A DNA stretch of 35,047 bases from a virus. Taxonomy: Duplodnaviria > Heunggongvirae > Uroviricota > Caudoviricetes. The stretch spans positions 1 through 35,047 of IMG/VR virus record IMGVR_UViG_2534682060_000007; one strand, written 5' to 3'. Below the pieces are notes generated by a model. It was not told the origin of the DNA. It did not search any database and saw nothing but the letters and a program-made list of their open reading frames with translations. The first letter of the stretch is position 1; every line of letters begins with the position of its first letter. Shown here piece by piece: positions 2,959-35,047 of this stretch. The position numbers and the translations under genes are program-made.

Positions 2959-2970
2959 GTCTCACCATTT

Positions 2971-3004
2971 GTGTTAGAAAATACATATTAATTATCTAAC
3001 ACAA
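2971..3004. promoter_or_regulatory. operator-like inverted pair of the recurring TGTTAGA motif (site 1)
   Basis: GTGTTAGAAAAT at 2971-2982 and inverted TATCTAACACA at 2994-3004, in the 60-bp gap upstream of rdgC start. Confidence 0.45.
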
Positions 3005-3017
3005 ATGGGTGCATTTT

Positions 3018-7641: not shown

Positions 7642-8340
7642 ATGGAATATGTTATAAAGGATAAATTGTTTAATAAAGTATTTGCATATATTTTTATCTC
7701 GTTTTTAGTTGTTAATTGGCGAGATATATTAATACTAATTAAATCAAAAGAAGATATTCTTTATACACTATCAATAGTATTTGTTGGTGGCAAATTACCG
7801 TTTCTTGGTGGTGTTGTTTTATCACCGTGGGTTGCTCACTTTTTCTTGCCGTTTGTTTATGGCGTGATTGCGTCAATTGTGGCGCCAATAGTTACTCTAG
7901 CTGTATCTTACGTTACAACCAACATATATCATGAAATAAAATTTTTAGATGAAAATGCCTATGAAAATCAACTTAAAAAACAAGCAAAGAAAGCCAAAGA
8001 AAGAATTGATATTGAAATGAATGGTAAGTATAGCCAAAAAGTATTAGACGAAAGAAAAAAAGACCTGGAAGATATTGATAATGCGATTAAAAATAAACAA
8101 ATTAACTTTGATAAAAAAAGAAAAGAGTTTGCTGATAATATAAATTTAACATATGATAACATTCTCAGTTTAAGCGAATTATATAAGAATGGAGGGTTCA
8201 AAATTGAAAATCAGCAGGATTTATATAAATTCCTTTCTGCAGTAAAGGAATCATCATTCAATAACATAAATTTTGATAAATTATTCTCTGAAATTTCCCG
8301 CTTGCATTCTGAAATGCAAACTGATTTATCAGAAAAATGA
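7642..8340 (+). CDS. membrane protein with N-terminal TM helices and long K/E-rich coiled-coil C-terminus, in very AT-rich DNA
   Basis: Hydrophobic segments FAYIFISFLVVNW and LSIVFVGGKLPFLGGVVLSPWVAHFFLPFVYGVIASIVAPIVTLAVSYV; start placed at ATG 7642 with AAGGA RBS (ORF-table start 7609 lacks RBS). Confidence 0.55.
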   Translation: MEYVIKDKLFNKVFAYIFISFLVVNWRDILILIKSKEDILYTLSIVFVGGKLPFLGGVVLSPWVAHFFLPFVYGVIASIVAPIVTLAVSYVTTNIYHEIKFLDENAYENQLKKQAKKAKERIDIEMNGKYSQKVLDERKKDLEDIDNAIKNKQINFDKKRKEFADNINLTYDNILSLSELYKNGGFKIENQQDLYKFLSAVKESSFNNINFDKLFSEISRLHSEMQTDLSEK

Positions 8341-8375
8341 AAGCCTGGCATAAACCACCAGGCTATATGTGTGGT

Positions 8376-9569
8376 TTATGCTTTTTTTACATACTCCATG
8401 AACATTTTTTTAGCTTGTGCTGGTGGTGTTCCAGCCATGACAAGCGCATCAATGAACGCCTGCTTCTTCAGTGCGAACTGATCGGCCAGGCGTTGCTGAA
8501 GCTCCTTGTTTTTCTGTTTCTCACGTTGCAACGCCGCTTCTTTTGCTGCCGCCCGTTTTTTCTGTGCGTCTGACAACTTTCTGGCCTTGGTCAGTTGGTC
8601 ACGTAGCTTGTCAATCTTGCCGTTGTCCTTTGCCAGTTTTGTGCTTAAAGCGGCCTGGCGCTTCTGATAGAGCCTCCATTCTCGCTTGGCAGCGTCAACG
8701 TTCGTTTTACTGCTACGATTGCGATTAAACTCCTTCTCGTCTTCTTTTGAGAAGTGTTTGGTTGTACGGCGGCGATCGTCACCAAATGCAATTTGCGTTG
8801 CAGCCTTTTGTAGCGCACGAGCAATACTCATTTGCCAACTGGCGGACTGTAACCGCGTCATTGAGTGGATCACGTGTTTACAGGCGACGCCTTGCAGCTT
8901 CGGGTTGCGAACTTTTGGATAGGCGTATTCTTTTGGCGGTGCCAGGGCAAAGTTACCCGCAGTGGCGATGTAACGATACCAGTATTGATGACGACCACAG
9001 TCACAATCGAAAGACACTCGCCCGGCGCACAGTGATTTAGTGATTTTGAGAGCTGATTTATCGTCTTCTGCGATGTCATCAACCATCTGATCCCATTCTT
9101 CAAAGCGTATCCGGACGATATGGTGCTGGTGGACGGATATATCCGATGCTTCTACGCGGATATTAATCACATTGTGGCGAAGAGATACGGGTGTAGCTCT
9201 TTTGATACCAGATCCGTCATCCACGGCGTTATTTGCACGCTTAATATCGATTGCCTGGCTGGATGCCACCAGCTGGGCGTATGTGATGCCAGCCGTCTTG
9301 CTGTCATATTTTTCGCGCGTTTTACTCCGTAGCTTTTCGAAACCTTTCAGGTCGTCTCGCGTGAAGAACGTGCCGCCTTTTTTCTTCCCTAACTTGAGAA
9401 TATCTTCGGCGGATTTGTTCCTCAGTCTACCTGGCGTCAGCGTCCGGTGAGCTTGTCGGCGCTTACGGGTTTGTTCTTTCCTGATAAGGTCGAATAAACG
9501 CGTGAAGTCCTTAGAGGACAGGCCGTCAGTGATATAGCGCCCGTCCTGGTTTTTCAGGAAATCAGGCAT
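8376..9569 (-). CDS. SWIM-type zinc-finger protein with K/R-rich coiled-coil C-terminus
   Basis: CDCGRHQYW...GVACKHVIH fits a C-x-C...C-x-H SWIM-like motif; GGAG RBS; start overlaps stop of upstream 109-aa gene. Confidence 0.55.
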   Translation of the reverse strand: MPDFLKNQDGRYITDGLSSKDFTRLFDLIRKEQTRKRRQAHRTLTPGRLRNKSAEDILKLGKKKGGTFFTRDDLKGFEKLRSKTREKYDSKTAGITYAQLVASSQAIDIKRANNAVDDGSGIKRATPVSLRHNVINIRVEASDISVHQHHIVRIRFEEWDQMVDDIAEDDKSALKITKSLCAGRVSFDCDCGRHQYWYRYIATAGNFALAPPKEYAYPKVRNPKLQGVACKHVIHSMTRLQSASWQMSIARALQKAATQIAFGDDRRRTTKHFSKEDEKEFNRNRSSKTNVDAAKREWRLYQKRQAALSTKLAKDNGKIDKLRDQLTKARKLSDAQKKRAAAKEAALQREKQKNKELQQRLADQFALKKQAFIDALVMAGTPPAQAKKMFMEYVKKA

Positions 9570-9891: not shown

Positions 9892-10084
9892 AACAAAGCC
9901 TCTCAGTCATAACCTGGGGGAAACTGTATGCAGGGTGTGAAATGCGAGAAACAGACAGGCCACCAGTTCAGGGGGATGTGGTTCATAAATCCCCTCACTG
10001 GTGACAAGTGACTTTCATTAATCTTTATGCGGGGGCCAGCTTCATTTGCTGGCATTAGATTAAAAATTAAACGGAGTGAATGAC

Positions 10085-10219: not shown

Positions 10220-10873
10220 TCAAAGTATCACGGTATCTTCATCAACTTCTTTCCCAGCCAGTGACTTTGGCTGGGAGGTGCCTGCTTTAACTTTTTCATG
10301 CCCAATAATGGACAGGAACGAAGCGAGTATGCCTGTTTTTTGCTCTTTCTCGACTGTACCGGTCATCTGCTCTACATAATCTGCACTGGCAACGTTGTGG
10401 TATACGGTCGCGTAGCAACACAGGATCATCAGAATATGCTCCGGCCTGATATCCTGCCAGTTCACCCTGTAGACTTCTTCTCCGTTACCGTTGTATTCGG
10501 TATCAACGATAGAGTCGGGGATTTCGAAAGCACCTTTGTTATTTTGCGGCAGGGATAATAGTTTCTGGAGTTTTAACTCTCTGTATCTTTCCATCCCGAC
10601 GATGATTGCTGCTCTACCATCGGCATGACGGGTCTTGAGAGTCACCTGACTTGCTCCGGTGCCAGCGGAGATCGTTGGCGTAATTTCGTCTACTAGAACC
10701 TTAAATTTGCTTTTCCGCAGGGCTGCTATAGCTGGAGGAATTTTTTGCTTTTGCTCCAATGCTGACGCGGGAAGGGGTTTTACTTCGTTAATAATGAGAG
10801 CACCGTCTTTCAGTATTGCAGTGAGCATTTGAGGCTTGCTGGTGGTCAGGCTGAATATTGCGATCTTTTCCAT
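10220..10873 (-). CDS. hypothetical phage protein
   Basis: Start placed at ATG 10873 (MEKIAIF...) with GGAGG RBS; ORF-table start 10915 is upstream in-frame. Confidence 0.6.
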   Translation of the reverse strand: MEKIAIFSLTTSKPQMLTAILKDGALIINEVKPLPASALEQKQKIPPAIAALRKSKFKVLVDEITPTISAGTGASQVTLKTRHADGRAAIIVGMERYRELKLQKLLSLPQNNKGAFEIPDSIVDTEYNGNGEEVYRVNWQDIRPEHILMILCCYATVYHNVASADYVEQMTGTVEKEQKTGILASFLSIIGHEKVKAGTSQPKSLAGKEVDEDTVIL

Positions 10874-10900
10874 TGTCCTTCCTCCACGGATGACGGATAC

Positions 10901-10925
10901 AAAAAAAGGCCGCACATGGCGGCCT
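10901..10925 (-). terminator. intrinsic-terminator-like hairpin in the 5' leader of the 10220-10873 gene
   Basis: Stem aggccgc/gcggcct; on the minus strand it is followed by a 7-U run; sits 28 nt upstream of the start codon on the same strand. Confidence 0.4.
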
Positions 10926-11141
10926 GCTTTGGCGTTATGACTCCCTACCGCGCTTCGGCTGAAAGTTAATCGTCAAAAGAACCTTCAACGGGAGCCGTTA
11001 GCGCGATGGATTATGTGCAGTTTGTGATTTCCAAAATAGTGTCAACCACTTTTTGTGGATTTTATTTTTTGACCGAAATTTGGCCTAAATCATGTTGATG
11101 TAGTTAATTGTTTTTATAACATAAAACTTCATTTTGTTTAC

Positions 11142-11765
11142 ATGAAGGATGGTGTAGTGAAGTTAAGGGTTTTAGGGGCCGCGCTCGCGGCTATGTTGGG
11201 ATGCGTATCTGCTAATACTGCCAATGCAACTGCGTTACCTGCACAATTCAGGGCAGGGCAGCAGGTTATGAATAACGCTGGTGGGGATCATTCACAAGCG
11301 GCCATTATGGACTTTTGCAAGAGGGAGGGCATTCCATTACGGCCTGTTGGAACTCAGTTTATTGGTAAAACTGACTTTTGCGTTTTTGCATATACAGCAT
11401 ATCTGACGGACAAAGCTATAACAAAAACAGGTTATTCAACCAAAGATACTCTTTCCAGATTAAGTCAGGGATGGCAGCAATTCGAAGTGTATCGCCAGCA
11501 AGGATTAGGTGAGTTATTGCAACCACTTTTTATGCTTGCGTTGGTGCCAGAGGGGCAGCAATTTTTGGTTAAAAAGGGAATGCTTCGCCAAAGTGATATT
11601 GCCGGGTTCGATAGCATGATGGCTTATGAGCGCAAACTAACCGAGCAGCGAAATAAAAAACCATCTGCTTCATGTGTGCAAAGTAAAACAGCAGAATACA
11701 GTGCAGTAGCCGGGCCTTTAGCCAAACAAATGGCAGAGCAATGGTGTAAAAAATACGGGCAATAA
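11142..11765 (+). CDS. secreted or lipoprotein-like hypothetical protein
   Basis: N-terminal signal peptide LRVLGAALAAMLGCVSANTANA; possible alternative GTG start at 11157 with better RBS. Confidence 0.55.
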   Translation: MKDGVVKLRVLGAALAAMLGCVSANTANATALPAQFRAGQQVMNNAGGDHSQAAIMDFCKREGIPLRPVGTQFIGKTDFCVFAYTAYLTDKAITKTGYSTKDTLSRLSQGWQQFEVYRQQGLGELLQPLFMLALVPEGQQFLVKKGMLRQSDIAGFDSMMAYERKLTEQRNKKPSASCVQSKTAEYSAVAGPLAKQMAEQWCKKYGQ

Positions 11766-11785
11766 GTTACGCAGCGGAGGCAGAA

Positions 11786-12178
11786 TTGAAAAGATTGGCT
11801 ATTGCTTTACTGGCGTCTTTCCCTTTGATCGCGAGCGCCGGAAATTTACAAGTTAAGTGCGGTCGGTTTGATATAAAAATCTATCCAGATGCCATATTTC
11901 TGAATGGGAATAAGGTTGATAACGCACACCGAAAAACTGAATCTGACGTAATGAGCTATGTGTTCCAGGAGTATGCGGAGATGGGGGGAACTTACACGCT
12001 GTACTCGCTGGATGTTCCTTCTCGCGGTGATATGACATTATCCCATCAATGGCAGAACGCCGATGGCGAAGCTCTGCGCGAGGTTAAAACAGAAAAATGT
12101 GGCACTTTCCATTCTTTTAAAGGGAAAGCGCCAAATGTTAAATCTGTGCTTGAAAAACAGCGCGCAGGTGAGCTTTAA
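11786..12178 (+). CDS. secreted hypothetical protein
   Basis: Signal peptide MKRLAIALLASFPLIASA followed by mature domain with two Cys. Confidence 0.6.
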   Translation: MKRLAIALLASFPLIASAGNLQVKCGRFDIKIYPDAIFLNGNKVDNAHRKTESDVMSYVFQEYAEMGGTYTLYSLDVPSRGDMTLSHQWQNADGEALREVKTEKCGTFHSFKGKAPNVKSVLEKQRAGEL

Positions 12179-12486
12179 ACACCTTTAACCACGGAGATGC
12201 CGTTCCCTGCACGATAGCGGCGGGGAACGGAATTCTCCATCAGGTCACGAATTACTCCCGCCTCATGTAGTTCCTCTGTTTCCCAGTATCTGTTTGTCAC
12301 CAGATCGAGGCTGGCTATGACCTTGTGCCGGTCATTAGGCATAGCCAATTTTTCTGCTATAACCATCAGTGAAAACTCTTCATCCAGTAGGATTTGATAC
12401 CAGACTTTTGACAGCTCCAACTCTCTAATGAGGGTGAAGCGCCGCTCAAGTGTGGCGGCAGAATAAGTGAAATCTATTTTTTTCAT
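12175..12486 (-). CDS. hypothetical protein downstream of antirepressor
   Basis: 103-aa ORF on same strand as antirepressor operon. Confidence 0.45.
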   Translation of the reverse strand: MKKIDFTYSAATLERRFTLIRELELSKVWYQILLDEEFSLMVIAEKLAMPNDRHKVIASLDLVTNRYWETEELHEAGVIRDLMENSVPRRYRAGNGISVVKGV

Positions 12487-12545
12487 CGTGCGGATAATCC
12501 GATTATTTGGCAGTTAAATCCCCGGCGTCGCCGGGGATGCAGCAT

Positions 12546-13487
12546 TTAACTAACAATCCAGTCCATAGCAATAACATCCTCTGGAGCTAAATCAATAGCA
12601 TGGATTTTCCCGTCACGGATGGTGCGCCAGTGCTTTCGTGATCCACCTTCGGGCCACACCCATATACCTTCAGGCCAGGAAGAACGACGACACACTGTTG
12701 CGTATCCAGTCCTGATCTTCTCTCTGACGGTATGTAGTGACAGATTATCCTTTGGGCTTTCAGGCACAGGATGGTGGATTGCCTGAAACATCCCCATCTT
12801 TGGATGATACCAGCGTTTATTGCGTGGTTCTGCCTCCGACATCACCTGCTTAAAGGCTTTCCGGAAGGGGGCCAGGGCCACAATGGAGCGTCGCGCAAGC
12901 AAACCATCTGGAGTTAAAAACTCATGCGTATCGGTGGGAATCCGGAAAGCGTTAACCAGGTTGCGACATTTGGCTTCAGTCAGGCCACATTTCGCCGCCA
13001 GCTGGCGGTAGCCAATGTAGCCTTCCGGAATATTGCCTTTCTTTATTTGCTCGAGTGTTTCAGCGACCATCGATACTTGTGCTGATACCTCGGCTACCTG
13101 GGCATTTACGGCGTTGATCCGGCGTTCATGCTCAAGATGCATTTGCGCCATTTCAGCCAGAATTTCGGCTTTTGATTTTAACTGTACCCGGGCATTCTCC
13201 AGTTCGCGCCAGCGGTCCACCAGCCGGGCGGTGAATTCCGGAGAGAGCTGCGCGACGACAATGATGCTGTCTCGTTTTCCTTGTTCGCCTTCAAAGATGT
13301 AAGCCTTGGAAAATCGACGAGGGCCAACTGATTGTTTATTTTCAATTTCCACAGATTGTGGAAATTGGATCACACTCTTTTTAGCCAGTGTTTCGATAGT
13401 TCTCTTCACACTATCTGGGCGACTTCCTACCAGTTCCGCGATCTCAATACTGGTCATTGTCGCTTTTTGAGAGATGGACAGATTCAT
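12546..13487 (-). CDS. phage antirepressor (Rha/Ant-like)
   Basis: N-terminal TSIEIAELVGSRPDSVKRTIETL resembles the Rha-family regulatory N-domain; 313 aa; start overlaps stop of upstream small ORF. Confidence 0.7.
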   Translation of the reverse strand: MNLSISQKATMTSIEIAELVGSRPDSVKRTIETLAKKSVIQFPQSVEIENKQSVGPRRFSKAYIFEGEQGKRDSIIVVAQLSPEFTARLVDRWRELENARVQLKSKAEILAEMAQMHLEHERRINAVNAQVAEVSAQVSMVAETLEQIKKGNIPEGYIGYRQLAAKCGLTEAKCRNLVNAFRIPTDTHEFLTPDGLLARRSIVALAPFRKAFKQVMSEAEPRNKRWYHPKMGMFQAIHHPVPESPKDNLSLHTVREKIRTGYATVCRRSSWPEGIWVWPEGGSRKHWRTIRDGKIHAIDLAPEDVIAMDWIVS

Positions 13488-13702
13488 CAGTGCACCTCCA
13501 CGCAGTTCATTGGCAGATTCCAGTAATTGAGGATCTCCATCGCATCAAGAGTGAAGCGAGCAGCAAAAATGCAGGGTTCTTCGGGAAGGTATGAGCGCGC
13601 TTCTGCTTCGGTTGCAGCCATGACGCAGATATACAGGTGTTTTTGGCAGGAATAGAAACGCCAGATAAATTCAGAATGAGTTGGGGTAGGGGTAGTAGCC
13701 AT
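13487..13702 (-). CDS. small protein translationally coupled to antirepressor (in the position of P1 icd)
   Basis: 71-aa ORF with strong AAGGAGG RBS; stop overlaps antirepressor start. Confidence 0.55.
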   Translation of the reverse strand: MATTPTPTHSEFIWRFYSCQKHLYICVMAATEAEARSYLPEEPCIFAARFTLDAMEILNYWNLPMNCVEVH

Positions 13703-13885
13703 AATGGCAGCCTCCTTTTGCTAATTTAAGGAGCTACCGCGTGAGGTTCCAATCTCAATGGCGGTAGCACTGACTGGGTTGGAACTACCGGCGCAAAAGG
13801 GAACCGGCCTGCCTTTCGGCAGCCCAGCCAGCACTACCATTGATCTCTGAGCTAAACGCTACGTATGGCTGTGCGATGGCATGAC
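13703..13885 (-). ncRNA. candidate structured leader / antisense-type regulatory RNA upstream of the antirepressor operon
   Basis: Several inverted repeats: 13733-13740/13761-13768 (8 bp), 13763-13778/13823-13838 (16 bp, perfect only with G-U pairs in the minus-strand transcript), GNRA hairpin near 13806-13821. Confidence 0.3.
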
Positions 13886-13887
13886 AC

Positions 13888-13910
13888 AAAAAAAGACGCT
13901 TTCGGCGTCT
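13888..13910 (-). terminator. Rho-independent terminator (minus strand)
   Basis: Hairpin agacgc/gcgtct followed on the minus strand by a 7-U run. Confidence 0.5.
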
Positions 13911-14014
13911 GTGTCGCCTTTTGCATTATCCGGGGTTCCAATCCCGGCACCCGTTTTTCTAAGGTGCCGTAGAAATATACCCCACGATAATGCCAGGGCG
14001 CAACAGTCAGTATT

Positions 14015-14182
14015 TTATGCTTTGGCGGATTTCTTCCGGGCTTGCTTGCAGGCGTAGGCCATTGCTTTAGCTTTCACTTCATCCAGCTTCCCGGTGATCA
14101 CTTCTTTTCCGAGAGTGACAAACCAGTCATAGCAACCGCCAGTGATGTTCTGGATTTGAAAGTTGAGGTAGCGAACGGTCAT
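14015..14182 (-). CDS. small hypothetical protein (55 aa)
   Basis: ATG at 14182 with GGGGGTG RBS; translation MTVRYLNFQIQNITGGCYDWFVTLGKEVITGKLDEVKAKAMAYACKQARKKSAKA; not in ORF table. Confidence 0.4.
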   Translation of the reverse strand: MTVRYLNFQIQNITGGCYDWFVTLGKEVITGKLDEVKAKAMAYACKQARKKSAKA

Positions 14183-14500
14183 TTTGACACCCCCAGCGCG
14201 AGTAAAGAATGCAGATTATCGCGTGAGTGGCGGACAACGAGTGATGGGAAAAGACAGTAGCTGTTCATAGTGTAGTGACTCCTTGCTTTCGGAGCCGCCA
14301 TCGACTGTTCCACGGTCTGGTGGCGGCGCAATAAAGGCTGGAACACCGTGAGTCAACGGGGGCTTTTCAGCCACCTATATTGCACCGCCATTGGTATGGC
14401 GGCGGCAATCATACGAAAAACTAAATAGTTTGTCTCAAAAAGTTGACCGGTGTGCCAATCGGTAGTGAATGTACATCGGAGCATTTTTCAATTCAACTTA

Positions 14501-14519
14501 AAATGTTAGAAAACTAATT
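14501..14519. promoter_or_regulatory. recurring motif site 2 (AATGTTAGAAAACTAATT)
   Basis: Direct sequence match to the recurring motif; overlaps the stop codon of the 14514-15092 gene. Confidence 0.35.
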
Positions 14520-15092
14520 TATCAATTCAATCGCCATCTGATACAACGCCATTTCATCGGCATTGTGCCGTATGAAATCTGCTTTTCCGCCTATTTTTCC
14601 ATCAGCATGAACAGGGACCAGCCAGGGATATTGTTCTCGGACCTCGGCTGGCGCTGCGTACTGGTGGTGCCATTTACACAAAGGGAGGACATATTTATGC
14701 GCGTTCTCTGCCGTTCTCCCGAAGATATGGTGCAGGGATACCACTGGGCTATGTTGCCCGTGAATATGGCAGGCAATGCAGGGGAGAGTACCGATAGCGG
14801 TCTGTATCCGGCGTTCATCGGCTGTGAGTGATCTGCCCTTCAGGCCGCGTGACGTGCGTGTTTTTTTGGACGGAGCGGATACAGCTTTCTCTTTTCTCCG
14901 CTGGTCATATTGCTTTGCTTTTTCAATTCTCTTTTGCCGATATTCAGGCGATGCGGCTTTTTCTCTCGCTCGCTGCTGCTGGCGTTGAGCTTGTTGAAGG
15001 CGCTTTGCCCTTTGTTCCTCTCGCCAGGCCGGGTCAGCCAATCTTTGCATGGCTTTTTGTCTCTGTTTCTCCCAGTAGCTCTGTTTCTGCAT
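14514..15092 (-). CDS. HNH-nuclease-domain protein (NinG/YbcO-like) with K/R-rich coiled-coil N-terminus
   Basis: C-terminal CIAC...LHHIFGRTAENAHKYVLPLCKWHH fits the C-x2-C / HH / N / H HNH pattern. Confidence 0.55.
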   Translation of the reverse strand: MQKQSYWEKQRQKAMQRLADPAWREEQRAKRLQQAQRQQQRAREKAASPEYRQKRIEKAKQYDQRRKEKAVSAPSKKTRTSRGLKGRSLTADERRIQTAIGTLPCIACHIHGQHSPVVSLHHIFGRTAENAHKYVLPLCKWHHQYAAPAEVREQYPWLVPVHADGKIGGKADFIRHNADEMALYQMAIELIN

Positions 15093-15140
15093 GATGGCTG
15101 CCTCTTACTTTTCAGCGATTTTTCTATGATTGATCAAAAT

Positions 15141-15174
15141 GGTTAGATATTCAAAATTGATTTTCTAACACAAA
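15141..15174. promoter_or_regulatory. recurring motif site 3, inverted pair in divergent promoter region
   Basis: GGTTAGATAT at 15141-15150 and inverted TTTTCTAACACA at 15161-15172, between the HNH-like gene and the rightward early operon. Confidence 0.4.
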
Positions 15175-15364
15175 ACATTAATATCATTCCTGATAACTGT
15201 TTGGAGGACATGATGCTTATAGCTTTAAGTGCGATCCACCAGCCATCTGTGAATGAGATTGGCCTGTTCTATGTGTTGTTTTTCGGGGCGTTGGCGCTAC
15301 TTGAGCTTGGTATTGAGCTTTTCGCAGTGCTTATGTTTTGCGTCACGATTTTGGGGAAATTTTG

Positions 15365-15976
15365 ATGGTGAAACGTATTTTGAAAATTTACATCGCGGGG
15401 CCGATGACTGGTTATCCAGATTACAACCGTGCGGCGTTTAATGCGAAAGCGAGCGAGCTGATGGCTGAAGGGCATATCGTTCTGAATCCAGCGGTGTTAC
15501 CTGGTGGCCTTTGCCAGAGTGAATACATGGATATTTGCCTGGCAATGGTGCGTTCTGCTGATGCGATTTATTTGCTCAATCGATGGGAAGAATCGGTTGG
15601 TGCTCGTGCAGAGCACGCGCTGGCTGAAAAGCTGGGGCTGACTGTAATTTATGAGTCACCAACCAACATTGAATGCCAGGTTGCTCCGCATATTTACCGG
15701 GAACTGGTCAATGCACTGCGTGATATCGCTGCTGTATATCACGGCACAGAACAGCTTCGTGAGCGTTTAGCCCATACCATTTCCTATTACCTTTCTTTAT
15801 CTCATGAGCACAAGCTCCGCCAGAAGGTAATGATCAAATTTATCATGAGGTTATCGAAATCCCTGGCAAACGCCGATCCAAAGAATCCATTACCGAAAGA
15901 GGCAATGAATTACCTGAAGTCCTGCAACGTTGTTTCTGAAGATGGCGTTCTTTTGGTTAGAAGGAGTTCTGCGTGA
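15365..15976 (+). CDS. DUF4406-like protein (nucleoside 2-deoxyribosyltransferase-like fold) with C-terminal extension
   Basis: IYIAGPMTGYPDYNRAAF motif typical of DUF4406 / N-deoxyribosyltransferase-like proteins; start at ATG 15365. Confidence 0.6.
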   Translation: MVKRILKIYIAGPMTGYPDYNRAAFNAKASELMAEGHIVLNPAVLPGGLCQSEYMDICLAMVRSADAIYLLNRWEESVGARAEHALAEKLGLTVIYESPTNIECQVAPHIYRELVNALRDIAAVYHGTEQLRERLAHTISYYLSLSHEHKLRQKVMIKFIMRLSKSLANADPKNPLPKEAMNYLKSCNVVSEDGVLLVRRSSA

Positions 15977-20341: not shown

Positions 20342-20366
20342 TCAAATCATTTACGCACTCAAAATT

Positions 20367-20400
20367 ACGTTAGAACATTGATTTTAGTTTTCTAACATAT
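20367..20400. promoter_or_regulatory. recurring motif site 4, inverted pair
   Basis: CGTTAGAACA at about 20368-20377 and inverted GTTTTCTAACATA at 20387-20399, just upstream of the 20440 gene. Confidence 0.4.
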
Positions 20401-20439
20401 TATTTTACCGATCGGAACAAAACAGAGTCGGTATGCATT

Positions 20440-31621: not shown

Positions 31622-31640
31622 GATGTGTTAGAAATTTAAT
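31622..31640. promoter_or_regulatory. recurring motif site 5 (GATGTGTTAGAAATTTAATT)
   Basis: In the 73-bp gap between the Cre-like gene and the downstream operon. Confidence 0.4.
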
Positions 31641-32669
31641 TTACGAATCCATCAGGCGGCTATTAGCCCCCACAGACACGCCGCCACGGCGAAGATACCG
31701 CATAAGTGTTTCCGGTTTCTTCCAGGTTCCTTCCTGCATGATCTCCACCATAGACACCTGCTTTTCAGCCATATCAATAGCGGCCCCGACACGTGCACTA
31801 TGCCCGGTCCACGTCCGGTATCTTCCTTTGTTTGGCGTAGCATCTCTTTTATTCAGCAACACCCAGGCGTCGCTGAATATTTTCTCCATTGCAGGTGCAG
31901 TAAGGGGCGTTGTCGTGATCCTGGCCTTATTGCTACGGTGTATCGGCGGGAACAGCACTGCGTCAGGATGTTCGCGAAGCCCGGAAACATCCAGCCAGTC
32001 ATTCAGCACAGCGGTAGTGCGACGGGAAAGCACCTTATCAAGCCCGGCGGCGGTCGTTATTGTCTTCGTGTGTGAAATATGTAGCGTGACAGTGTCACCT
32101 GTTTGGTCCAGATCTCCTACACGAATACGCGAGATTTCCGACATACGCATCAGCGTATTGTATGCAACAAAGAGAAAAGCCCGGTTGCGCAGGTCCACCA
32201 GCCGTTCTGACCTGGACAACAGGACGTCGAGCAGTTTCAGATCGTCCCACCGCAGCGGTATAGCCTGGCCTGTTCGTTCGCCTTTTTCAGTTGCCGCTTC
32301 GCGCCGGATGCGCCGCATAGCCAGAGAAACACTTTTATCATCCGAAAGTGGCGGAAGACCACAATGCGAAAGCAGCATGTTCAGCATGGCGTAGTGCTTA
32401 TCAATGGTGGTCGAAGCCAGATCGGCATCATGCAGCTGAAGAAAATACTCGCGGGCCATTTCTGGTGAGATCGGAAACCAGGCAAGCTGGCGAGCGTGAC
32501 ACCAGCGCGCCCAGGAATGAAACACCAACCGGAGGTCGCGCAGAGTATTCGGCGCATAAGCCCCCTGGTCATTCATGAACCGCATAAAGTTTTCTGCGGC
32601 TTCCTGGTACTCTTTGCCAATGTTGCGCAGAAAACCACCGGAACTGCCAGAGATAATTAATTCACTCAT
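31641..32669 (-). CDS. Cre-like tyrosine site-specific recombinase
   Basis: Collinear similarity to P1 Cre as recalled: SWARWC, WFP, VSLAMRRIRRE, AYNTLMRMSEISRIRVGDL, HISHTKT, WTGHSARVGAAIDMA, EIMQEGTW, catalytic Tyr in LMRYLRR. Confidence 0.85.
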   Translation of the reverse strand: MSELIISGSSGGFLRNIGKEYQEAAENFMRFMNDQGAYAPNTLRDLRLVFHSWARWCHARQLAWFPISPEMAREYFLQLHDADLASTTIDKHYAMLNMLLSHCGLPPLSDDKSVSLAMRRIRREAATEKGERTGQAIPLRWDDLKLLDVLLSRSERLVDLRNRAFLFVAYNTLMRMSEISRIRVGDLDQTGDTVTLHISHTKTITTAAGLDKVLSRRTTAVLNDWLDVSGLREHPDAVLFPPIHRSNKARITTTPLTAPAMEKIFSDAWVLLNKRDATPNKGRYRTWTGHSARVGAAIDMAEKQVSMVEIMQEGTWKKPETLMRYLRRGGVSVGANSRLMDS

Positions 32670-32820
32670 GAAACTATTTCACCTCTATATACAGATGACG
32701 CTACGCGAAAAATATAAAAATGACAGGGTAGCTATAAGTTAATTTTCAAAATACAAGCCTTTGATTCGAGGCACGTATTTTCAGTGATGTCAACACTGTT
32801 CATCTACACATGATTATAGC

Positions 32821-32854
32821 CTAACTTTAAATAATGCCAATTATTTAAAGTTAT
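32821..32854. other. candidate lox-like recombination site (13-bp inverted arms, 8-bp spacer)
   Basis: CTAACTTTAAATA-ATGCCAAT-TATTTAAAGTTAT; arms match 12/13 to each other and 10/13 to the loxP arm ATAACTTCGTATA; about 150 bp upstream of the Cre-like start. Confidence 0.45.
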
Positions 32855-33032
32855 AAAATGGCGATTTTTTTTAATCCATCACAGATTGATTGCTGACCAG
32901 TAACACGTTGCCTTCATGGTCTTTAATTTGCGAAGCGTGGTTTATACAGTTGGTTTTCTAAAATTGATGACAAAAAATCACAGTTCGATCCTTTACTCAC
33001 TCTGTTATTCGACATAAATTTGTCATAGTAAT

Positions 33033-33052
33033 TTTATGTTAGAAAACTAAAT
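33033..33052. promoter_or_regulatory. recurring motif site 6 (TTTATGTTAGAAAACTAAAT)
   Basis: About 13 bp upstream of the 33065 start codon; a related TTTTCTAAAATTGA lies at about 32955-32970. Confidence 0.4.
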
Positions 33053-33064
33053 CGAGTAGGAATA

Positions 33065-34102
33065 ATGAGTAAGAAGTCGATCGAGAAAGAGTACAAACGG
33101 TTCCTGCAAACCGCTGAACGGTGGAAAGAGCTGGTGGTCGCAAACTCTGTTTTCCATGATACCAGTTATGCTGGCGAGGAATTCCGCCATGTTGCATTAA
33201 CGCATGACCAAAACATATTAGAAGAAGCTGAAAAATGTCTTGCTGAATGGAAAGCCTTCGTTGACATGTGCCGCGATGCCGACGGCAAAGCGTCGAACAT
33301 TGTTGAGTCTGTATATTCTCCGATCCCATTCATCATTGAGGACACCAATCAAAGCACGCATGTTGTTGTGCAAAGCGCTACAACAACACGTACATTTACA
33401 CGTGAACAATTGCTCAAAAAATACGACAAAATCATAAAGAAAAGCCTGAAAAATAGGGTTTTTTCTCAAATCGTAGGTGCTCTTGAAGAAGAACAGCGCT
33501 TCTTTGAAGCTGAGCCTGAAGGCGAGATCTACCGGGCGCGTAAAGAGGCATATACAGATGTTGTGCTGACAACAAACATCGAAGGCAGCAATGCCCTTTC
33601 TCGCTTTAGAGTTGGCGCACATGGCGCATTGGTTTTCGCAAAACTACCGAAGACAACAATCCCCGTTGTCAATAATGTTGGTGAGCGCCGGAGCATTACA
33701 ATTTATTCTGGCGTCGAATCGGTACCTTGCAGCCTTCTCGGCGATTTTAACTTATATCGTGTTCGTGACCTGGAAAAACACCAGCCAAGCTACGTTGCGA
33801 AGTCGTACATCTTAAGGAACATCGATATTCGCAATGAAAGCCTTAAGCAGAAATCCGCTAAGATGCTGGAGGATGCCGATCCGGCTATTCGCCATATCAT
33901 TGAGCGTAAGATACGTACATCACGTGAAGCAATGGCAAGGCTGGATAAAATGGATCTGGAATTGTTAGACGTAATGATGGCCTCTGGAGACGACCTGACC
34001 GGCATAAAACTGAATGAAGCTCGTAAAAAATACGGCAAAGCAATCGAAGAACGTTACGGATACACATTCCCCCAAACGCAGTACGCCGCGAAGCTCTGGT
34101 AA
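33065..34102 (+). CDS. hypothetical protein (345 aa) between the lox-like site and terminase
   Basis: Isolated gene flanked by AT-rich intergenic DNA and a terminator hairpin; no recognisable catalytic motif. Confidence 0.6.
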   Translation: MSKKSIEKEYKRFLQTAERWKELVVANSVFHDTSYAGEEFRHVALTHDQNILEEAEKCLAEWKAFVDMCRDADGKASNIVESVYSPIPFIIEDTNQSTHVVVQSATTTRTFTREQLLKKYDKIIKKSLKNRVFSQIVGALEEEQRFFEAEPEGEIYRARKEAYTDVVLTTNIEGSNALSRFRVGAHGALVFAKLPKTTIPVVNNVGERRSITIYSGVESVPCSLLGDFNLYRVRDLEKHQPSYVAKSYILRNIDIRNESLKQKSAKMLEDADPAIRHIIERKIRTSREAMARLDKMDLELLDVMMASGDDLTGIKLNEARKKYGKAIEERYGYTFPQTQYAAKLW

Positions 34103-34111
34103 TCACAACCG

Positions 34112-34137
34112 GCCCCGCATCGCGGGGCTTTATATAT
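34112..34137. terminator. terminator hairpin between convergent genes
   Basis: Stem gccccgc/gcggggc with 3-nt loop followed by TTTATATAT. Confidence 0.45.
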
Positions 34138-35047
34138 CCAGATCCGGCATTTCGATATCCGCCAGAACCTGATCTCGGAAAGTTGCCATTTCGGCACCAA
34201 TATCTTCATTAGCAGGCACATAGTCCACCAGCATAGTGAAGCAGTAGGTATCCCATCGGTCAGGCGATTTGATGTTTAGCTTTTGCCGCATGTGCTCTTT
34301 GCGCATCATCGCCATTTTCCCTTCTTCATTCAGTAAAAAGGGTATTTTTGACGCTTGCTCTGCCGTTTTAGGGTCACTGTCTATCCGCATACGCCCTGAC
34401 TTTATGGCATCTCGCGCCATAATATTTGCGTAGGCACGCTGATTAACAAATCGCTCCCTGTCTTTGTTCGCAAACATGGGTTTTCCCCACCGAATACGTA
34501 CCGGGTTCGCACCACGACGCACCAACTGCGCACACGTATCAGAACCAAAACCATCAGCATCAACCGCGATTGTTATATTCGGGTATTTTTCCGGCGTACA
34601 TTCGTTATATATGAAGTCAGCAAAGGCCAATGGGTCCATAGTGCCAGGCATCTCCATTACCTTAAAGTTAACAACGCGCCGCTTATCCCTGTGACCAGAT
34701 ACCTTGCAGATGTTGAGGACCGACTTATCTCGCCCATTACCAACGTCAGCCGTTGCCACCCATCCCCAGTTTTTCTCCAACAACACCTTGCGGCGAGCAG
34801 CGCGATCGCATTCATCACGACCAAGCAAATAGCCGTTAATTTCTCGTGGGAACTGACCAAGCACCTTGACCATGTACTCAATAGAATCGCGCCCGCCATA
34901 TTCCAGAAGCTTCTGCTTGATGAATTGTGGTGTGACGAACGGTGATTCTTCCGAGTTAAGAACAATTGCTGTCCAGATCCCTTTCGGGTTGTCTGGGGTT
35001 TTTGCTTGAGAATGGTGCGAATCGTAGAAATAACCACTTGGCCTTGT
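34130..35047 (-). CDS. terminase large subunit, C-terminal nuclease region (N-terminus beyond right edge)
   Basis: Frame open to the window edge; C-terminal IAVDADGFGSD and SPDRWD acidic motifs consistent with a terminase RNaseH-like nuclease domain. Confidence 0.5.
   Translation of the reverse strand, partial: TRPSGYFYDSHHSQAKTPDNPKGIWTAIVLNSEESPFVTPQFIKQKLLEYGGRDSIEYMVKVLGQFPREINGYLLGRDECDRAARRKVLLEKNWGWVATADVGNGRDKSVLNICKVSGHRDKRRVVNFKVMEMPGTMDPLAFADFIYNECTPEKYPNITIAVDADGFGSDTCAQLVRRGANPVRIRWGKPMFANKDRERFVNQRAYANIMARDAIKSGRMRIDSDPKTAEQASKIPFLLNEEGKMAMMRKEHMRQKLNIKSPDRWDTYCFTMLVDYVPANEDIGAEMATFRDQVLADIEMPDLDI

Follow-up and report, generated by a model that had tools for sequence, protein, structure and literature searches.

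The locus studied here raises two linked questions: what is encoded by a gene that stands alone between a recombination site and a terminase gene, and, should its product be a repressor, how does the latter recognize DNA? The window, i.e., the whole stretch of DNA analyzed here, comprises positions 1–35,047 of the viral record IMGVR_UViG_2534682060_000007 (Caudoviricetes), and the gene occupies positions 33065–34102 of its plus strand (345 amino acids (aa), ATG start). An earlier interpretation of the letters alone (hereafter, the sequence-only reading) had described an isolated gene of 345 aa between a lox-like site and the terminase, and had offered two candidate roles, a master repressor and a defence moron. 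The open reading frame (ORF) is confirmed, and the lox-like site turns out to be rox, the recombination site of Dre. We consider it very likely that this gene, c1, encodes the master repressor of the lytic functions, and that the repressor acts via TGTTAGAAAA-type operators. The gene call itself changes nothing; the additions of this study are the operator consensus with a regulon map, and a predicted Tus-like fold.

Identification of the Gene as a D6-Type c1 Repressor

Megablast of positions 32670–34200 against phage records yielded a sole match, Escherichia phage D6 (98.8–99% DNA identity), and the matched D6 features are annotated as "c1: phage repressor protein," "pacB," and "rox site for Dre recombinase." By this match, the window is part of a D6-like P1-family plasmid prophage (phage-plasmid), with rox as the "lox-like site" and Dre as the "Cre-like recombinase." Both D6 records label the 345-aa gene (c1, orf1) as a prophage repressor "similar to P1 gene C1," and the window protein, whose exact sequence is deposited as WP_000039381.1, differs from D6 C1 (AAV84948.1 / ASR76322.1) by one amino acid (99.7% identity). 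The gene is thus already known, having been annotated as the D6 c1 repressor since 2004; phage D6 and its C1 were reportedly described by Sauer and McDermott in 2004 and by Gilcrease and Casjens in 2018. At least 149 records of plasmids contain the same gene. Most of these plasmids come from E. coli or Salmonella, and almost all are non-mobilizable replicons of ~90 kb.

The relationship to P1 C1 (283 aa) is more distant, with 21% identity over 240 aa in BLASTP (pairwise E 3e-8). Both proteins match phrog_1678 along their entire length (E 4e-170 for the D6-type protein and 2.6e-140 for P1 C1), and the precomputed Pfam assignment of the window protein is PF27008 (Phage_P7_repressor_C1). The NCBIfam equivalog NF041318 (phage_rep_C1) is matched with E 7.6e-6 and 25.6 bits, so that its 500-bit cut-off is not reached. 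Judging from these matches, the protein is a member of the C1 family but belongs to a subfamily distinct from P1 C1.

Word-indexed homologue searches retrieved just 11 close relatives, and an exhaustive profile search was needed to reach P1-type sequences. Among 1.84 billion representative proteins, the latter identified only 83 clusters, which fall into two length classes: long proteins of ~345–380 aa that match the query end to end, and short ones of ~250–290 aa, including the P1-type repressors, in which the match is confined to query residues 5 to ~245. As seen from these length classes, the family has a common core of ~240 residues, to which the D6 subfamily adds a C-terminal domain of ~100 residues.

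The order of genes (recombinase, c1, pacB) is kept in P1 and in relatives whose C1 proteins are 70%, 51%, 48%, 44%, and 30% identical to the window protein, and the most distant family members retain at least the convergent pairing of a c1-like gene with a terminase-sized gene. On this synteny, c1 is a core immunity gene of the P1-like lineage, not cargo. The statement of the sequence-only reading that the equivalent slot in P1 holds the c1 operon is correct, as the P1 pacB–lox interval carries c1-coi-imcB-imcA.

The gene stands alone, has a promoter region and a terminator of its own, and lacks a domain in the local Pfam copy; these features would fit a defence or lysogenic-conversion moron unrelated to immunity, the second of the two roles initially proposed. 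This role is, however, rejected as hardly credible: no family of the PADLOC-DB models was matched at E up to 1, P1 C1 is a homologue of the protein, and all P1-like elements examined carry the gene as part of their syntenic core. The role of a master repressor, proposed first, is supported by the identity to D6 c1, the homology to P1 C1, the synteny of the immunity region immC, and the anatomy of the predicted binding sites described below.

It was also rightly observed that the protein has no recognizable enzymatic motif and no identifiable helix-turn-helix (HTH) domain. A scan of the local Pfam copy at E up to 1 yielded no family for the full protein, with neither an HTH nor an S24 peptidase domain found, and a sequence search of the PDB produced no match to the full protein.

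Predicted C1 Operators

The motif TGTTAGAAAA has 10 matches in the window at no more than one mismatch, compared to 3.45 expected, and this count was reached in none of 100 shuffled sequences. When 15 intergenic matches from the D6 genome were aligned, conservation extended past the seeded 10-mer, with T and G/A added on the 5′ side, and T-A-A at positions +12 to +14 and T at position +17 on the 3′ side. The resulting site, T(G/A)TGTTAGAAAA(C/T)TAA, is asymmetric, ~19 bp long, and has high information content at its G and C positions.

A scan of the whole D6 genome with the respective positional weight matrix (PWM) found 17 sites scoring at least 14, compared to ~1.2 in Markov shuffles, and all 17 fall outside the annotated coding regions, in a fraction that makes up 10.5% of the genome. 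Two of them were outside the seed set, namely, a site 174 nt upstream of repL and the inverted partner of the pdcB site; ten out of 17 are located within the window. The TGTTAGAAAA motif is almost certainly the C1 operator, a prediction based on the intergenic and promoter-proximal location of the sites and their conservation at orthologous places.

The P1-type operator ATTGCTCTAATAAATTT has no matches at up to three mismatches either in the window or in D6, and, conversely, no D6-type sites were found in the P1 immC segment. Since P1 operators are absent, D6-type rather than P1-type immunity is to be expected.

Predicted C1 Regulon

Two predicted operators are located upstream of c1 itself. 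The proximal one (33033–33054, plus strand, PWM score 26.8) contains the exact core TGTTAGAAAA at 33037–33046 and is invariant in five relatives, while the distal one (32946–32967, minus strand, score 16.1) is inverted and contains the core TTTTAGAAAA at 32954–32963, with one mismatch. These are the two motif copies that had been noted in the AT-rich region upstream of the gene. In D6, sites precede c1 (two), lpa, pmgS, the first icd-antirepressor operon, repL, and gene 23/orf52, and the remaining ones have counterparts in the window, as follows. A site at 31622–31643 (plus strand, score 25.4; D6 position 89948) lies just past the dre stop codon and upstream of orf117-orf116-dut. Between ppp and pdcB, there is a bivalent inverted pair of overlapping sites (20364–20401, scores 15.3 and 28.3; D6 80709 and 80729). 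Single sites were found 69 nt upstream of ref (15153–15174, minus strand, score 29.0; D6 76637) and between mat and simB (11104–11125, minus strand, score 19.8; D6 72202). Another bivalent pair, overlapping and inverted in D6, is located directly upstream of the hrdC-dcm-dmt operon (2968–3005, scores 24.7 and 27.3; D6 64116 and 64136).

Finally, a site at 14500–14521 (plus strand, score 27.9; D6 75980) stands at the head of the leftward immI-type operon orf86-orf85-isrK-like-c4-icd-antirepressor, which encodes the second antirepressor. Downstream of this site, at 13757–13844 (minus strand), we identified the C4 antisense RNA (Rfam RF01695, 76.7 bits, E 1.7e-13), an element of the antirepressor module of immI, whose presumed role is to oppose C1. 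An isrK-like small RNA (RF01394, 62.5 bits) adjoins the C4 RNA, both lying within 13757–13967 of the minus strand, an arrangement of the immI-type antirepressor control module. As a separate observation, the D6 segment from the tRNA genes to pmgS (7850–9085 of record L004) comprises 1.2 kb of unannotated sequence, whose minus strand carries two strong sites resembling the operator, at 8917 and 9073.

In P1, the asymmetric 17-bp operator is present in 22 dispersed copies bound by C1, which controls, in particular, RepL and Lpa (PMC8546580), as well as ref, ssb, dmt, kilA, and ban (PMC4713147). The D6 site map thus appears to reproduce the P1 C1 regulon with a different operator sequence.

Alternatively, the TGTTAGAAAA sites might serve a nucleoid protein of the host or some other phage regulator, with C1 recognizing a different target. 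Two points count in favor of this explanation and against the assignment of the sites to C1: the sites are AT-rich, like the targets of H-NS or IHF, and H-NS binds the regulatory region of P1 ref (PMC4713147). However, the site is specific and asymmetric, with high information at G and C positions, the core is present only in the clade with D6-type C1, being absent from P1 and from a Leclercia element with a 30% identical C1, and the sites are placed as in the C1 regulon of P1, the promoter of c1 included. We consider a different binding factor improbable and treat the sites as predicted C1 operators below.

Conservation of the c1 Upstream Region

The proximal operator is flanked by the putative promoter on one side and the ribosome-binding site on the other, and its conserved ...CTAAA end (33051) is at a distance of 13 nt from the downstream ATG of c1, on the coding strand. 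The two c1 operators are inverted and separated by 83 bp, their 15-nt arms being 87% complementary, and a spacing of 83–85 bp, about eight helical turns, is kept in relatives.

Alignment of the region from rox to the ATG in five elements (C1 68–100% identical) shows that most of this DNA has diverged, apart from four islands that are invariant: rox; TTTTCTAA, corresponding to the distal operator; TCCTTTACTCA; and TTTTATGTTAGAAAA together with the ribosome-binding site. The 11-bp island TCCTTTACTCA (32989–32999, plus strand), located between the two operators and invariant in all five elements, is a candidate −10/start region for the c1 promoter or, alternatively, a site for another protein. 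A scan with the sigma-70 consensus upstream of c1 found no strong match on the plus strand; candidates selected by eye have 19-bp spacers or weak −10 boxes.

Similar sites are observed in more distant elements. In a Shigella plasmid (C1 69.5% identical), 13 D6-type sites are found at orthologous positions. In metagenomic relatives (C1 51%, 48%, and 44% identical), the TGTTAGAAAA core is kept with different 3′ flanks, and it forms an inverted pair ~84 bp apart before c1 and is also found past the recombinase gene and in front of lpa. In one of these relatives (L104, 10001–11080), the called start of the c1-like gene is upstream of the proximal operator (core at 10002), and the annotated start codon is probably too early.

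In the Leclercia plasmid, with a C1 30% identical and the same synteny, the D6 PWM finds no D6-type site. The enriched word AGTGATCA was considered as a candidate operator of this element and rejected, as it represents GATC clusters in or beside the pacA-like gene and the parM region and looks pac- or par-like. In this plasmid, L. adecarboxylata pE1_003 (10592–15781), the order of the recombinase, c1-like, and terminase genes is retained, the terminase large subunit gene being split by a Tn5403-family transposon; the P1-like element is probably a defective prophage.

Overall, the operator core appears to be kept wherever a D6-type C1 is present, and absent where the C1 is P1-type or more distant, which supports the pairing of protein and site but does not constitute proof.

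Predicted Fold and Resemblance to Tus

We modeled the protein with AlphaFold2. An alignment of nine sequences gave a mediocre model (predicted local distance difference test score, pLDDT, 79.9), and the 65-sequence family alignment gave a confident one (pLDDT 94.3; predicted template modeling score, pTM, 0.79). The predicted core consists of the elements H3–26, E28–33, E39–46, H49–71, E89–93, E99–112, H113–129, H131–148, and E155–171 (H, helix; E, strand), followed by short strands; after the core, a long helical hairpin (233–307) and three short helices are predicted. The core (codons 1–232, window positions 33065–33760, plus strand), common with the short P1-type repressors, has the predicted Tus-like alpha/beta fold discussed below; its residues W62, P88, R159, and G187 are invariant, and F13, R41, P86, A105, and R157 are nearly invariant. 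The helical C-terminal domain (codons 233–345, positions 33761–34099, plus strand) is present in the long D6-type subfamily only and has no sequence match in the PDB.

When the first model (pLDDT 79.9) was compared with the PDB by Foldseek, only four entries, all of them E. coli Tus, were matched significantly, the best one with E 1.4e-7, probability 1.0, and template modeling (TM) score 0.38–0.41, the next match having E 0.075. Independently, Pfam "Ter" was listed first in the hmmscan of 65 family members, being matched by two out of 65 (best E 0.012); two other Pfam families were also matched by two members, only at E ~0.2. The window C1 itself has no match to Pfam Ter (PF05472) at E up to 10.

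The third comparison was performed using hhalign, with Tus represented by the chromosomal protein and six plasmid Tus proteins at 26–31% identity. The C1 family aligns weakly with Tus over 156 colinear columns (C1 35–194 to Tus 87–266) with probability 57.7% and E 1e-4. The score is 39.2 for the real alignment, 19.4 for the reversed Tus alignment, and at most 27.0 for 30 block-shuffled decoys. The short P1-type subfamily alone gives 72.7% and E 3.2e-5 in the same register, and the long subfamily alone matches in the same region with E 0.0035. In this register, the invariant P88 corresponds to Tus P148, and the strand with the invariant R157-x-R159 corresponds to the basic Tus strand K229-K231-R232, which, in 1ECR, belongs to the interdomain strands that occupy the major groove of the DNA.

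The two proteins also resemble each other in their biology. In solution, P1 C1 exists as a monomer. Tus likewise binds the non-palindromic ter as a monomer and in an asymmetric manner, and it represses its own gene via a ter site in the promoter of the latter (PMC10331603). On the coding strand, the distance from the end of TerB to the ATG of E. coli tus is 12 nt, compared to 13 nt between the end of the proximal c1 operator and the c1 ATG.

Alternatively, the protein could be a homologue of C1 whose similarity to Tus is spurious, resulting from chance or convergent alpha/beta architecture or from a modeling artefact, in which case some other surface would read DNA. Against this, three independent methods select one and the same protein of the PDB, with alignments of 156–305 columns; the hhalign register is equal for two disjoint subfamilies and scores above all 31 decoys; and both proteins share asymmetric sites and an autoregulatory site before their own gene. 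We regard a spurious resemblance as unlikely, though deserving to be kept in mind, and a Tus-like, non-HTH fold of the DNA-binding core of the C1 family as probable on the basis of modeling. Such a fold would explain why no HTH can be detected in C1.

A stronger statement would be that C1 repressors (PF27008) and Tus share one fold and probably one ancestor. The common ancestor would then be a single-chain clamp that reads a long non-palindromic site with interdomain beta-strands and autoregulates via an adjacent upstream site. That this relationship is both real and previously unreported seems to us plausible, though we lean somewhat against it. A literature search for a link between C1 repressors and Tus found no such paper, the primary D6 papers being outside its reach; the Tus-like fold of C1 may be unreported.

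A direct similarity of the DNA sites was considered and rejected: when the D6 operator TATGTTAGAAAACTAAA is compared with TerB TATGTTGTAACTAAA, ~10% of shuffled operators align as well, so that this comparison provides no independent evidence. Separately, words like TGTTAGAAC or CGTCAGAAC, resembling the D6 operator core by eye, occur 80 nt upstream of the start of tus homologues of IncC-type plasmids.

Given the predicted fold, one may also ask whether C1 is mainly a polar fork barrier of the Tus kind, or a controller of plasmid replication, rather than a transcriptional repressor, and the site upstream of the lytic replication gene repL would fit this as well as the fold does. But for P1 C1, a homologue of the protein, repression of transcription has been established experimentally (PMC8546580), and the predicted sites are at promoters, in both orientations and often in inverted pairs, unlike a polar fork trap. 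We find a primary role in fork arrest or replication control very improbable, and repression of transcription remains the preferred function of C1.

Organization of the immC Locus

The gene was described as convergent with the terminase and divergent from the recombinase, and the map agrees with this. On one side of c1, the gene dre, encoding the 342-aa Cre-like tyrosine recombinase, occupies positions 31641–32669 of the minus strand. On the other side, positions 34130–35047 of the minus strand are occupied by the 3′ part of pacB, encoding the large subunit of the terminase; the gene ends at 34130 and extends past the window. A frameshift in pacB, suspected from the list of ORFs, was ruled out: the translation is intact, and the gene simply leaves the window. 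The left boundary of immC is formed by rox (32822–32853), a perfect 14-4-14 inverted repeat. The 395-bp region upstream of c1 is AT-rich, with a GC content of 0.315–0.335, compared to about 0.49–0.55 in the flanks.

Between the convergent c1 and pacB, 8 nt past the c1 stop codon, there is a hairpin with a T-rich tail (34111–34129, plus strand), formed by a G+C-rich 8-bp stem with seven G-C pairs and followed by TTATATAT; the terminator-like hairpin described in the sequence-only reading is indeed present.

A sigma-70-like promoter on the minus strand (32813–32853), composed of TTGGCA, a 16-bp spacer, and TATAAT (11 out of 12 matches), reads toward dre. Its −35 box is inside the rox spacer, and therefore recombination at rox would fall on the recombinase's own promoter.

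Among over-represented words, Chi (GCTGGTGG) ranks first in D6 as well as in all relatives examined; for example, CCACCAGCA has 25 copies in D6, compared to 0.7 expected.

Proposed Mechanism and Significance

We suggest that C1 recognizes the asymmetric ~19-bp site in front of early and lytic operons, namely, lpa, repL, ref, hrdC-dmt, mat/simB, pdcB, orf117-dut, and the two c4-icd-antirepressor modules, and that bound C1 would block their transcription, so that the plasmid prophage stays quiescent. As the two inverted operators bracket the c1 promoter region, autoregulation is very likely, possibly with the formation of a DNA loop, as in P1. The specificity of C1, differing from that of the P1 repressor, would confer D6-type rather than P1-type immunity.

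At the level of structure, the predicted Tus-like two-lobed alpha/beta core (residues 1 to ~232) would read DNA by placing basic beta-strands with R157-x-R159 in the major groove, an arrangement that fits binding of a single copy to a non-palindromic site. Candidate roles of the C-terminal domain (233–345) are docking of an antirepressor, such as orf18 or orf82, or operator-to-operator contacts, the latter idea being suggested by the spacing of the c1 operators by about eight helical turns. Inactivation of C1 would most likely proceed via the c4-controlled antirepressors, because the partner proteins that C1 has in P1, Coi and Lxc/Bof, are not detectable.

The operator model and the regulon map are explicit for D6-type phage-plasmids, which are common in enterobacteria, and predict shared immunity among elements that keep the TGTTAGAAAA core, that is, down to 44% identity of C1 and excluding P1. 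The Tus-like fold, if true, would provide a structural mechanism for the whole C1 family and a possible evolutionary source of the Tus-Ter system, and would, more than 35 years on, account for the lack of an HTH in P1 C1 and for its binding to asymmetric operators. To our knowledge, Tus has so far been a structural orphan, and it has been proposed to be domesticated from plasmids; in C1 repressors, it would gain its first relatives, located on mobile elements.

Comparison With Known Systems

The P1/P7 C1 repressors have a homologous ~240-aa core and the same place in immC beside pacB. In both cases, many asymmetric operators, predicted ones for D6, are dispersed over early promoters, including the repressor's own, and the regulons, again predicted for D6, overlap in lpa, repL, ref, dmt, and immI. 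D6 C1 is 62 aa longer than P1 C1 due to its structured helical C-terminal domain, and the operators differ, the TGTTAGAAAA-type and ATTGCTCTAATAAATTT having in common only the TTAGA core (nine out of 17 positions by eye, which is suggestive only).

The immunity loci differ as well. P1 immC has coi-imcB-imcA with c1, whereas D6 has ~210 bp between rox and c1, with no gene annotated there in either record. Similarly, no Lxc is annotated in the D6 records, and none was detected in a D6-like Salmonella plasmid (PMC6799933). In D6, orf13 (86 aa; L004 11549–11809, minus strand) is located directly downstream of ulx, at the place where P1 has the C1 co-repressor Lxc (82 aa); these two proteins demonstrate no sequence similarity, and orf13 may be a positional analogue of Lxc. 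The possibility that the C-terminal extension of C1 is a fused Lxc or Coi was rejected, as it has no similarity to either P1 protein.

Tus (PDB 1ECR, 4XR0-2; PF05472) is the best and sole significant structural neighbor of the predicted C1 core, and the two are alike in their non-palindromic sites, predicted ones for C1, and in the position of a site just upstream of the start of their own gene. They differ in that Tus causes polar fork arrest at Ter, whereas C1 would repress prophage transcription at ~17 predicted sites, which occur in both orientations and in inverted pairs; in addition, C1 has the extra C-terminal domain.

Repressors of the lambda CI type, composed of an HTH and an S24 peptidase domain, resemble C1 as master repressors that maintain lysogeny and regulate their own genes. 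However, C1 has neither an HTH nor a LexA-like autocleavage domain, and its predicted asymmetric sites are scattered over the genome, in contrast to the clustered palindromic operators of lambda CI. While lambda CI is inactivated by RecA-stimulated cleavage, the inactivation of C1 presumably depends on antirepressor proteins.

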